A stretch of DNA of 64,000 nt from a virus, in IMG/VR virus record IMGVR_UViG_3300020469_005214, positions 77,670 through 141,669 of that record; one strand, written 5' to 3'. This document shows positions 19,935 through 31,600 of the stretch, piece by piece; the first letter of the stretch is position 1; each line of letters opens with the position of its first letter. The notes beneath the pieces were generated by a model that had not been told where the DNA came from, did not search any database, and saw nothing but the letters and a program-made list of their open reading frames with translations. Position numbers and translations under genes: made by a program.

Positions 19935-20137
19935 ATGAAGAAACAAAAACACCTATCGATAAAATAAGGGCTGAAGCCAAAAAAATTGAAGATGCCATTG
20001 AATATGCAGATGCTAAAGTCGCAGAAAGATTTGGCGATTCAAGATGGACTGAAACAGATGGTACAGAACATTATACAGATAGAGCGCAAGATTTATTTAA
20101 TGAATACTACGACAGTTACCAAAGGTTAACAATATAA
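19931..20137 (+). CDS. hypothetical protein
   Basis: ORF track; YTDRAQDLFNEYYD. Confidence 0.55.
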   Translation: MNEETKTPIDKIRAEAKKIEDAIEYADAKVAERFGDSRWTETDGTEHYTDRAQDLFNEYYDSYQRLTI

Positions 20138-27312: not shown

Positions 27313-27900
27313 ATGCCAAACTGGTGCACTACAGATATAACTATAAAAGGATCAAAGAAAGATATCAAATGGGTATACGATTTGATTCAAAAACACAATG
27401 ATCGCAAAGAAGACTCAGTGGGATTCTTTGAATCACTAATTCCATCTCCTAACTGGGACAAGACACCCAACGAAGATGGGGAGTTGCCTGTTCCTGATCC
27501 TGCTAGGGATGCAGATGGCAACATCACTTTTATGTTTAGCAAGTTTCCATCCACAGGCAGGAATGATGACAGGTGGTATGACTGGAACATCAACAACTGG
27601 GGAACTAAATGGGAAGTAAGCAACATAGAGGTAACTGACATAAGCGATGATCAACTAGTTTGCTATTGGGATACTGCTTGGAGTCCATCTATTCCTATCT
27701 TTAATAAACTAGTTGAGCGTGGCTTGGATGTCGATGCTGAATTCAAGGATGAAGGTTGGATGTTCGCAGGTAGGTATGTGAATGGAGAGGTCGAAGATTA
27801 TAAAATTGAAATCATTGAAGCCGATGAAAACGAGGAAGATGATGGATGGGATAGGGTCATTGTTTATTCAAAGGAATGTCCTGAAGGAGAACATTATTAA
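27313..27900 (+). CDS. DUF1281/YubB ferredoxin-like domain protein
   Basis: MPNWC, WYDWNINNWGTKW, DTAWSP, DEGWMFAG. Confidence 0.75.
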   Translation: MPNWCTTDITIKGSKKDIKWVYDLIQKHNDRKEDSVGFFESLIPSPNWDKTPNEDGELPVPDPARDADGNITFMFSKFPSTGRNDDRWYDWNINNWGTKWEVSNIEVTDISDDQLVCYWDTAWSPSIPIFNKLVERGLDVDAEFKDEGWMFAGRYVNGEVEDYKIEIIEADENEEDDGWDRVIVYSKECPEGEHY

Positions 27901-27969
27901 AAAAGGCTTGACATCTGTAAAAAGGATGTCAGGCTGAATCCAATCTTTTAATTATAACCATATACACAA

Positions 27970-28281
27970 ATGAACAAAAACCTAAAAACTAACTTCGACA
28001 AACTTAAATTCTCAGAGCTATTCAAGGTGTCTTCTACAGAGCCACATACAATGACTTTGGATGAACGCCAAGAACTGGGAGGTTGGCAAAAAATATTCGA
28101 GTTTCCCAACGGCTTTGGAGCTTCTGTAGTCGTGCACGAATTTTCTTATGGCTTAGAACTTGCTTTGCTTGACAAAAGCCATAATATAGTTCAACACCCA
28201 GAAATTACTAATGATGTCGAAGGCTATCTCAACACTGACAGTGCTTGTGATATACTTCAAAAAATTGCAAAATTAGCATGA
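27970..28281 (+). CDS. hypothetical phage protein
   Basis: FPNGFGASVV...SYGLELALL pattern. Confidence 0.6.
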   Translation: MNKNLKTNFDKLKFSELFKVSSTEPHTMTLDERQELGGWQKIFEFPNGFGASVVVHEFSYGLELALLDKSHNIVQHPEITNDVEGYLNTDSACDILQKIAKLA

Positions 28282-28362
28282 TCTTGTGTTCATACGTGTA
28301 GTCGTCGTCTCGCCTTGTGGTTAGGGCGAGGCGACATTTCGCGAAATATAAATTAATATTAT

Positions 28363-28432
28363 GGGGGTGTAAGGGTTTCGACTTAAACTATTTAGTTTGA
28401 ACACGGTGGTTCAACTCCACCCACCTCCACCA
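28363..28432 (+). ncRNA. minimal tmRNA (tRNA-like domain only)
   Basis: 5' GGGGGTGTAAGGGTTTCGAC; acceptor GGGGGTG/CACCTCC with G3:U70; no D stem; T arm GGTGG-TTCAACT-CCACC; ACCA end; P2 closed by a short hairpin. Confidence 0.8.
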
Positions 28433-28443
28433 TTTTATTCTTT

Positions 28444-28550
28444 CCTAGGACGCCCTTGAGATTGGGCCAAACGAAGAGCCGTAGCGTTAATACGGATCGC
28501 AATGGGGATTTGCGTGAGGTAGTGAGAAGAACTCTGCCATCTCTATTTTT
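28444..28550 (+). ncRNA. candidate multi-hairpin RNA downstream of the mini-tmRNA
   Basis: Consecutive stems GCCC/GGGC, CCGTA/TACGG, CGCAA/TTGCG, then a final stem and T run; GC-rich island in AT-rich context. Confidence 0.45.
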
Positions 28551-28614
28551 TATTTTATTTTTTTTTGAAAAAAAAGTATTGACTTAGCCAAACGACCATT
28601 CATAATGCAAAACC

Positions 28615-31600
28615 ATGAAGACAATACAACTATCACTACACCGCTCCGAGGACGAACCTTTCCTTCAAAAATGGGAAGTCGCCCGCAAATGCGTTTTCTC
28701 TGCTAAACTTAATGCAGAACATATCGATTATCCAAATGCTCCAACAAAACTAGCTGAGCTTTTGTTTCACGTTACCAACGCACCATTTGAAATGTTGGAT
28801 AAAGTGCATGAAAAAATTCTTCTAGCTCTATGGGAGAATTGTAAAAAACAAGATACTTTTTACTCGACAAGCGTTGGCGATGTCGTTAAGATTCACGATC
28901 ATATTAGTGGAGAACGCACTACACTTATGTGCAAGTCAGTTGGATGGGAGGAATTATAATGGATACAAAAACAATACCTAATGAGGGACGATACGATTAT
29001 TCGATCAGCCTAGTAGATAGCTTTAACAAACAAATTAAAGAAGCCTATGAATACGAAAAAAATCACGCATACAAAGAATACGAAAGTAAAATTATATCGT
29101 ATCGAATGGGGGTGGAGTGACGGCTCTGATGATTCATCGCCTCCAACTCTAGTAGCAGTTGGTGCTAATCCCTATGAAGTTTGGGGCGATGAATACGAAT
29201 GGTCAGACAACCAATTTGGGTTTGATAACGACATACATTACTGGTTTGAGGATATGGACGAACTGAAGTCTTATTGCGTAAATGACGGCAAGGGCGAGTG
29301 GTATATTAAATCATACGAGTTTGTTCGAGAACATGATCTAGCAGAAATTTAACATATAAATTAATATTATGCCAACAGAAAAACTAACCGAACCACAGTT
29401 TCTTAGAACAAAAGAGATAACTGACACCATCATGGATGATATCCGTGTTGTTTTAAAAAAATATAAAAAAGATATTCCTATGTGGGATAATGAAAATATA
29501 AATTATAATTTAGAGAGTCATATTCGCGACCATGTTAGAATTGATGTAGTGCGCGAGGTTATGAAACAATATAATGTATACATATAATTATTATGAGCGG
29601 AGCACAAGAGATAATAGAACGAAACTTTGAACAACTCTGTATTGATACACTCGTTCCCTTGGGTATGAAACACGCAAGTGAAGAAAAAGAAAAATTATAT
29701 AAATCTATAAGAGAGTTTGTTTATGAGTTTATGTATGATTCATCGACATTAGAGGGCGTTGAAGAGGAAGCTGAGTATGTTCCTAACTATTATGATTTAA
29801 AATGGAGACCTTAACATGGACGAAAAATACAAAAAAGAAAGTCTTGACTTAGCACTTAGATGGTTTCAAGATAACGATGTTCCTGCATACGAGGACGATG
29901 GAAGTATATACGTTCAAGCAGGCAGGGATGCCGATGTCCAGATTTCAACATCTGAGATTGATTACAGAGCAGATTTACAAACAGATTATGAGCGCGAAAA
30001 ACAGTCACTTAACAATTAGGGAAGAAGTAACCGAGCAAGGTCTTGCCGTTCCCGTATCTTTACTATCTTTAGATGGAGAAGATGCCCTTTATATCCAGGA
30101 CACGCCCTACTTAAATATTGATTGCGAGTATTGCTCTGATCATTGTTTAGATGATAGTGGCTCGAACTTATTAGTTAAAATTACTGATCCTACTCAATTT
30201 GATGGAGACGGAAAACCTTTGAAAAATAGGCTTGCATTTGCTATTAATGCAGATTACGATTGGAACTGATGAAAAAACCATATAAAATACCATGTGCATG
30301 GGAAGTTGTTGCAATGGCAGAAGTAGAAGCGGAATCTTTGAATGAAGCCATTAGTAAAGTAGAAGATCACGATTTTCCATTGCCAATAGATAACTATTAT
30401 GTAGATGACTCTTTCGAAATCGATAAGGATTGGCTTGAGAACTTATATGAAGAAGAATATGAAAAAACTAACTGATTACTGCTTAAATAATAAACTAGTC
30501 GCCACAGAAAAAGATGTTGAGTCGGCATTTATGATTTGTGTTTGTGCAACTATATCCTTGACATTGATATTAATATCAACAATAATAGAATTAAATTAAT
30601 TAATATTATGACACACTTAGAACCACAAATTGGATGTCTCTCAGATGATATCATTGAAAAATTAGATAAAAAAATGGAAGAGCTGAAAGGAATCGGTCTA
30701 TCTGATATTGATATCTATATTATAAACCTTGCGATATCACTTAGTCAAAAAAAAGTCTTGACTTAAGTTTTCCCTCAACCATACTGGCTTTATGAAAATT
30801 ACACTAAAAAAGATAGAACACTCGGAGTTTCAATCACAAGAAACTAACTGTTTCAAGGCTGACCTATATGTTGATGGAAAGCCTTTTGCCATTGTAAGTA
30901 ACGATGGTATCGGTGGATGCGATATGCACTACAAACACCCTAAGAATCCTCAAACTCCTCAAGAGTATCACGAGGAATTAGATAGTATTTTTAAGTGGCA
31001 CAGAGAAAACACTACTTATAAAACTGAGTTTGACGACAGGGGATATAGCGAAGGTAGCTTGGATATGACAGTAAGTGATATCTTGGTAGATCATTTAATT
31101 ACTAAAGATGTTAAGAAGCTAATGTCTCGCTCTATGATTGTATTTGAAAAGGGTCAAGAAGGCTATTACAAGTTTGGAAAAAAGAAGTATGGAATAGTTC
31201 AAGAGACTATGGATGCTTTTAAGGCTAAGCTTGACAAATGGTATGGAGATAAGTGGGTATGTATAAACGATATGCCTATTGACGAAGCAGTTGCTTACTA
31301 TAAAACTAATTAAAATTATGACTACAGAAAACAAAATACCATACGGACTAGTTGAACATTGGCTAGGCTCAGATGCACAACTAGAAGAAGCAATTGATAT
31401 CTTAACTGATATCGCAAACGGAGATTATGCTCCTAGTCTATTAAAAGAAGACATATTAAGTCTAGAAGATTCTTATGAAGAAGCATTAGACTGTATGGAT
31501 GAAATACATTCCCCAAGTTAAGATGCCAACATATAATTTAGCAAGAGAAGTCACTTATATAGAATATTATGATGATATTGAGGCAGAATCACCCGAAGAA

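Follow-up and report, generated by a model that had tools for sequence, protein, structure and literature searches.

Why should a phage carry, between two protein genes, a 70-nt gene that resembles the two ends of a tmRNA with nothing but a short hairpin between them? The question is raised by positions 28363-28432 (+ strand) of the window, a 64,000-nt stretch comprising bases 77670-141669 of a 141,669-bp IMG/VR virus record (~34% G+C). Trans-translation is the main bacterial pathway of ribosome rescue and quality control, and an antibiotic target. In tmRNA's tRNA-like domain (TLD), G3:U70 together with A73 directs AlaRS, and the elbow formed by the D loop and T loop binds SmpB. All these determinants are found in the 70-nt mini-tmRNA. 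The 5' strand of its acceptor stem, GGGGGTG (28363-28369), makes 7 of 7 pairs with the 3' strand, CACCTCC (28422-28428). G3 is at 28365 and U70 at 28426; G1-C72, G2-C71 and the discriminator A (28429) are also present, giving the acceptor stem of a TLD, and an encoded CCA follows (28430-28432). The D-loop region, TAAGGGTTTCGAC (28370-28382), is unpaired, has no D stem and ends in UUCGAC; its GG..UUCGAC is the tmRNA TLD signature and aligns to positions 8-18 of the Rfam tmRNA model, RF00023. The T arm, GGTGG-TTCAACT-CCACC (28405-28421), consists of 5 bp and a 7-nt loop of the GGUUCNANUCC type, as in a TLD.

What joins the two ends is a stub of helix 2 (P2), in which TTAAACT (28383-28389) pairs with AGTTTGA (28394-28400) through 7 bp including one U:G. 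The stub is capped by a 4-nt loop, ATTT (inside 28383-28400), and linked to the T arm by the junction ACAC (28401-28404). It occupies the site where tmRNA has ~300 nt of pseudoknots and tag frame, and the 5' and 3' ends stand in normal, non-permuted order within the 70 nt. The first-pass annotation had claimed tmRNA-specific ends, G3:U70, the discriminator A, CCA, a D loop ending in TTCGAC and a full T arm, and each was found where it had been placed. Its further claim that P2 is closed by a tiny loop, with pseudoknots and tag frame absent, was equally borne out. The element is confirmed as a phage-borne tmRNA TLD with alanine identity elements and without an mRNA-like domain. Counterparts of U17, C18, G19 and A334, named as SmpB contacts in E. 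coli cryo-EM work (PMC8363625), are all present, and that of C335 is also kept.

Is this RNA better described as something other than tmRNA? RF00023 matches exactly the 70 nt with 49.6 bits (E 1.5e-16; gathering score 47 bits), whereas the tRNA model, RF00005, gives 26.8 bits, under its cut-off of 29, and the element has no D stem or anticodon loop; the better fit to tmRNA that had been claimed therefore holds. The RF00023 alignment runs from model position 1 to 374; inside it, 22 nt stand in for 326 model positions, and these nucleotides, between the aligned TLD ends, are the helix-2 stub, its loop and the junction. No resume codon, tag reading frame or pseudoknots, and hence no mRNA-like domain, are present in the 70 nt, in which ARAGORN finds no tag peptide. 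Two of the checks suggested in the first pass gave no match. ARAGORN calls the three tRNA genes of the window and makes no tRNA or tmRNA call at the mini-tmRNA. The mitochondrial tmRNA model (RF02544) has no match there and reaches no more than 13.6 and 11.5 bits elsewhere (cut-off 65), which leaves the comparison with jakobid mitochondria as an analogy only. The two-piece/permuted (RF04321, RF01849) and alpha tmRNA models have no match across the whole record.

An origin outside tmRNA, be it an odd or ordinary tRNA, an attP copy of the 3' end of a host ssrA gene or an assembly collapse, is extremely improbable. The T arm and acceptor stem are tRNA-like and the tRNA model does respond below its threshold; the tRNA reading was rejected on the absence of an anticodon arm, the absence of an ARAGORN tRNA call and the win of the tmRNA model within the clan. 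ssrA is a common integration site (PMC11915505), which gives the attP reading its appeal. It was rejected because the 5' half of the TLD is present though an attP core needs none, and because no tyrosine integrase or serine recombinase was found in the 141.7-kb record, which at an estimated completeness of 77% makes gene absences weak proof. As to collapse, the 1-kb stretch around the mini-tmRNA is present in at least 18 public runs from 12 studies, all of them marine, seawater or viral metagenomes. Contigs of 10.2 kb and 1.9 kb from different studies span the element with no indel, joint or base difference inside it; one of the two runs may be the source of the record, and the other comes from a different study. 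A collapsed internal segment, raised in the first pass as a way in which the claim might fail, does not show in these two concordant assemblies, and the collapse reading was rejected.

Several short contigs in two runs, X3 and X9, match only 28402-28435 (the T arm and the 3' end of the acceptor), with 2-4 differences and unrelated flanks. They come from the same seawater samples and are other tmRNA or mini-tmRNA genes of the community; one could be that of the host. Two RNA runs, both oligo-dT libraries, hold part of the stretch, their contigs covering only the flanks (27900-28027 and 28691-28900).

The ends of the element are those of a bacterial tmRNA. Over its first 20 nt it matches, without a difference, the 5' ends of tmRNA genes from 47 bacterial species of the Oscillospiraceae and Spirochaetes; where the locus extends far enough, as in 38 of the 47, the tmRNA measures 348-370 nt, and many of these tmRNAs share with the mini-tmRNA the acceptor strand CACCTCC-A(CCA) and the T loop TTCAACT. 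Together with the RF00023 match, this identity indicates bona fide ends of the bacterial type from which the middle is absent. None of 185,579 species genomes contains the exact 3' 25-mer. Oscillospiraceae and Spirochaetes were considered as hosts on the strength of the 20-mer and rejected; as they are implausible hosts for a pelagic marine phage, the matches are read as conservation of the TLD only.

Compared with the bacterial one-piece tmRNA (RF00023), then, the window RNA has the same ends and lacks ~280-300 nt, comprising the pseudoknots, resume codon, tag frame, helix 5 and most of helix 2. Nearly the same design has been reached in the laboratory. The TLDs engineered for SmpB co-crystals and ribosome complexes have a short helix 2a closed by a tetraloop, one of them joining the 5' 25 nt and the 3' 34 nt of the T. 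thermophilus RNA through UUCG (PDB 2CZJ; PMC3985003). These are constructs cut from full-length genes, however, whereas the window RNA is a natural phage gene under selection. The CDS-less tmRNAs of jakobid mitochondria (RF02544) and Mallomonadaceae plastids (PMC11915505) are likewise TLDs that lack a tag frame and presumably act together with SmpB, but they are reduced resident genes and the window RNA is an extra viral copy.

The closest precedent is a phage. A 'TLD only' tmRNA is recorded for Mycobacterium phage DS6A by Hudson, Lau & Williams (2014; PMC4131195); the case reappears in a 2025 paper on a tmRNA database, which adds plastid CDS-less genes of ~65 bp (PMC11915505). The kind is thus already described in phages, and the first-pass framing of precedent in terms of jakobids only was incomplete. 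The DS6A element (JN698994.1, about 28478-28560; tmID 11587; L276:279-361) is 83 nt long. It and the window RNA are both phage-borne and unannotated. Both have a complete acceptor stem, G3:U70, T arm and D loop with no room for a tag frame, and both align to RF00023 in the same pattern, model positions 1-374 with a deletion of ~300 positions. The window element has what defines the DS6A type, a complete TLD with a middle of non-coding length in a phage genome. The two also depart from GGAC before the T stem, DS6A having GCAC and the window RNA ACAC. They differ in that DS6A is a long form with AAAACC...GG inside helix 2, ends in ACTA without an encoded CCA and belongs to a 60-kb temperate actinophage; the window RNA is a short form with a plain hairpin, encodes CCA and belongs to a marine phage of more than 141 kb in which no recombinase was found. 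They have no detectable sequence relationship beyond the TLD consensus (43.2 bits with RF00023 for DS6A vs 49.6).

The mini-tmRNA gene lies inside a 333-nt gap between + strand ORFs 27970-28281 and 28615-28959. The window encodes a DnaE-type polymerase, a DnaB-like helicase, an exonuclease, a terminase and three tRNA genes, all of which encode CCA as the mini-tmRNA does; the ORFs neighbouring the element match only PHROGs of unknown function, apart from one weak DUF1281_C match. The DNA polymerase of the record is at most 31% identical to that of any isolate, so no host can be assigned from relatives. A blastn search of the region, the element and two other mini-tmRNAs against 50,697 phage records returned no relative.

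A promoter-like AT-rich motif, ATATAAATTAATATTAT (28346-28362), abuts the mature 5' end of the gene. Its core, TATAAATT, stands at 28347, 8-9 nt 5' of the first base, and the same TATAAATT stands at 20133, again 8-9 nt 5' of a gene, that of tRNA-Lys. It recurs at 29355, 6 nt ahead of the ATG of an ORF at 29369, and, in the form (A)TATAAATT(A), further window positions are 29497 and 36602. For the extended 18-mer, 12 matches occur with no more than 3 mismatches, where 1.3 would be expected. The motif is read as a putative -10-like phage promoter element that would give near-leaderless transcripts. On the other side of the gene, the T-rich tail TTTTATTCTTTCC (28433-28445), which has T-rich counterparts 3' of the gene in all relatives, may act in termination.

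Two further features share the gap. An 11-bp hairpin at 28304-28335 (GTCGTCTCGCC / loop TTGTGGTTAG / GGCGAGGCGAC) lies past the upstream ORF and ahead of the mini-tmRNA and probably acts as terminator for the former; it is kept with one wobble-preserving change in L112, a syntenic relative, and is absent from two more distant ones, L273 and L274. Directly 3' of the mini-tmRNA is a comparatively G+C-rich segment of 113 nt (28444-28556), missing in the otherwise collinear L112, L272 and L275. A stem and then a T run close the segment, which occurs once in the record, has no match in Rfam and shows no folding advantage over shuffled sequence.

Is the RNA maintained, or is it a leftover? L112 and the metagenome copies L272 and L275 are syntenic with the window at 77-88% identity. 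The L112 mini-tmRNA is identical at 67 of 70 bases, and all three changes fall in the hairpin with pairing kept (U:G to C:G, A:U to G:U, and one loop base lost). L273 and L274 are more distant, their shared genes being 66-92% identical and rearranged; here an isolated island of 95 nt, the element plus 17 nt upstream, is 91.6% identical amid unalignable flanks. In these two the hairpin has U:G changed to U:A and an altered loop, and TAA stands in place of CCA after the discriminator A (L273:4524-4593, L274:2122-2191), so that this lineage would depend on post-transcriptional addition of CCA. In L112, L273 and L274 the upstream motif persists as TATAGAAT or TATAGATT, in the latter two despite their unalignable flanks. 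Throughout the relatives at 65-88% identity, all changes in the RNA are in the hairpin or, in one lineage, in CCA. A survey of phage genomes had been called for in the first pass, and the same RNA is indeed conserved in relatives. The retention of RNA and motif as an island while flanks diverge and rearrange, with changes that keep pairing, argues for selection.

The same observations bear on the idea of a functionless, decaying remnant of a full-length phage tmRNA with a deleted middle, which is very unlikely to be correct. Full-length and two-piece tmRNAs do occur in 2.3% of phage genomes, marine ones especially (PMC9004378), and the architecture is formally an internal deletion in the RF00023 alignment. 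A remnant, however, is not expected to persist with its upstream motif as a conserved island, to accept only substitutions that keep pairing, or to appear with the same architecture, each helix neatly capped, in about a hundred distinct sequences from unrelated phages.

These sequences came from a search of IMG/VR with the pattern GGGG-N8-12-TTCGAC-N10-40-GGTTCNANTCC-N7-TCCACCA, which matched at least 119 contigs with at least 96 distinct sequences. Among the matches listed, 20 distinct sequences are short (up to 74 nt, with a plain hairpin) and the other 76, the majority, are long (75-86 nt), the form that DS6A also takes. A complete scan for short forms in which CCA was not required found 43 contigs with 31 distinct sequences, 16 of the 31 encoding CCA. 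That GGGG, TTCGAC, the T-loop letters and TCCACCA never vary within the family follows from the pattern itself; the covariation does not. Across 19 short forms, pairing holds in 98.2% of cells, and double changes are seen at 13 of the 19 pairs. Covariation scores 0.573, compared with 0.123 for shuffles, none of 500 reaching the observed value and slid partners giving 0.091 or below. By helix, all 7 pairs of helix 2 covary, as do 3 of the 5 T-arm pairs (100% of T-arm cells pair) and acceptor pairs 4-6; acceptor pairs 1-3 never vary. RNAalifold recovers the same three helices unaided. Single-sequence folding of the mini-tmRNA is not significant (z = -1.46) and its minimum free energy structure pairs D-loop bases with the 3' side of P2; the comparative fold is preferred. 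Both the identity and the fold of the mini-tmRNA are thereby shown by sequence comparison.

When neither GGGG nor TCC was required, in a second scan, the yield was tRNAs and noise only, with no TLD-type RNA of another acceptor identity. Four loci with 66-67-nt forms (L018, L031, L055, L067) have small genes 58-65% identical to genes of the window, which indicates that the trait runs through a wider group of marine phages. Some natural short forms close helix 2 with UUCG or GCAA loops. RF00023 is above threshold in 6 of 7 loci tested, at 57-81 bits, the seventh being L273, without encoded CCA; ARAGORN missed 113 of 119 mini-tmRNAs among the matches listed.

The long class (75-86 nt; in L002-L120) carries a conserved segment of the type UAAA(A/G)CC-N-AAGUG inside helix 2, which we take to resemble the start of helix 2b in E. 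coli tmRNA. At one long-form locus a Pistol self-cleaving ribozyme (L033:6093-6154, - strand; 51.9 bits, cut-off 34.5) lies ~106 nt upstream, on the same strand, of an 83-nt mini-tmRNA (L033:5905-5987) and might process its precursor; ARAGORN fuses the ribozyme and mini-tmRNA region into a spurious 324-nt tmRNA call. Some 1 kb upstream of a 67-nt mini-tmRNA there is a RAGATH-24 RNA (L031:871-1073; 54.1 bits, cut-off 45.3).

The window RNA departs from a standard TLD at the junction before the T stem. Among the matches listed this is GGAN in 90 of 96 phage mini-tmRNAs (GGAC in 76), and in the bacterial tmRNAs it is GGAC in all 38, of 47, with a readable 3' end. The ACAC of the window RNA is conserved in L112 and L272-L275. 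As a result, the base pair C21:G that closes helix 2a is replaced by a C.A mismatch in the window RNA, whereas 17 of 19 short forms have C:G there, and the GGAC junction with C21:G closure characteristic of TLDs is absent from the mini-tmRNA. Because ACAC breaks C21:G, the affinity for SmpB could differ. The GCAC of DS6A shows an altered junction to be compatible with the published archetype, and ACAC could be an adaptation of SmpB binding to tag-free use in this marine sub-family.

What, then, would the RNA do? It probably competes with host tmRNA for SmpB and stalled ribosomes and thereby lowers ssrA tagging. A functional TLD-only (CDS-less) tmRNA gene would be transcribed from its own probable TATAAATT-type promoter with almost no leader. 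The product would fold as the upper half of a tRNA, with acceptor stem, T arm, tmRNA-type D loop and helix-2 stub. Host AlaRS would charge it via G3:U70 and A73, and host SmpB and EF-Tu would bind it. The host's SmpB is the presumed partner because none is encoded by the phage; neither SmpB nor a full or permuted tmRNA nor an RF-1 domain was found in the 141.7-kb record, at 77% completeness. As the RNA has no resume codon or tag frame, it would compete with host tmRNA for SmpB and stalled ribosomes, and the competition would lead to less ssrA tagging, and so to less proteolysis, of proteins made during infection. From the conserved determinants and the published DS6A and E. coli mini-TLD result, we infer charging, SmpB binding and inhibition. 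In that result, a TLD-only RNA strongly inhibited tmRNA in E. coli whether chargeable or not (Mao et al. 2009, as related in PMC4131195 and PMC11915505).

The same charged RNA might instead be used by the ribosome. A tag-less rescue RNA would add one or more untagged alanines and the ribosome would be freed by a host factor, through ArfB, ArfA-RF2 or peptidyl-tRNA hydrolysis, so that phage proteins made from broken mRNAs escape degradation and ribosomes are recycled. This is possible, if on balance unlikely. Stalled ribosomes can admit a truncated tmRNA, accompanied by SmpB and EF-Tu, to their A site (PMC8363625, PMC3985003), as in a crystal structure that PMC8363625 cites, and in the standard model Ala-TLD accepts the peptide (PMC3985003). 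CDS-less tmRNAs also persist beside SmpB in jakobid mitochondria and some plastids (PMC11915505). The window RNA encodes CCA, and G3:U70, A73 and G1-C72/G2-C71 are invariant in the family even where the scan did not impose them. Against alanine donation without a tag, there is no resume codon and the ribosome would still be without a template after transfer; the phage record holds no release-factor-like gene; the E. coli experiment, as cited in PMC4131195, saw inhibition even without chargeability; and about half of the short-form relatives have no encoded CCA.

The choice lies between the two functions proposed in the first pass, SmpB decoy and tag-less alanine donor. The decoy is favoured by the published inhibition by an RNA that need not be chargeable, and by the fact that about half of the short forms encode no CCA. 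If sequestration of SmpB sufficed, there would be no explanation for the strict conservation of alanine identity, which points to a role for charging. It is conceivable, though rather doubtful, that alanine identity has been kept across this diverse phage family because the RNAs are charged and used by the ribosome, in a virus-encoded, tag-free trans-translation with release by host factors. If true, tag-free trans-translation would spare phage proteins from ssrA-directed proteolysis while freeing ribosomes.

The class has already been published for DS6A and the gain from the window element is modest. What it adds is a marine lineage of large phages, an encoded CCA, a candidate promoter shared with tRNA-Lys and the odd ACAC junction. 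A practical point is that ARAGORN overlooks such genes and the Rfam tmRNA model finds them. The phage mini-tmRNA is a test of the smallest working tmRNA, and a minimal phage RNA under selection that would either block trans-translation or use it tag-free may serve as a ready-made inhibitor scaffold.
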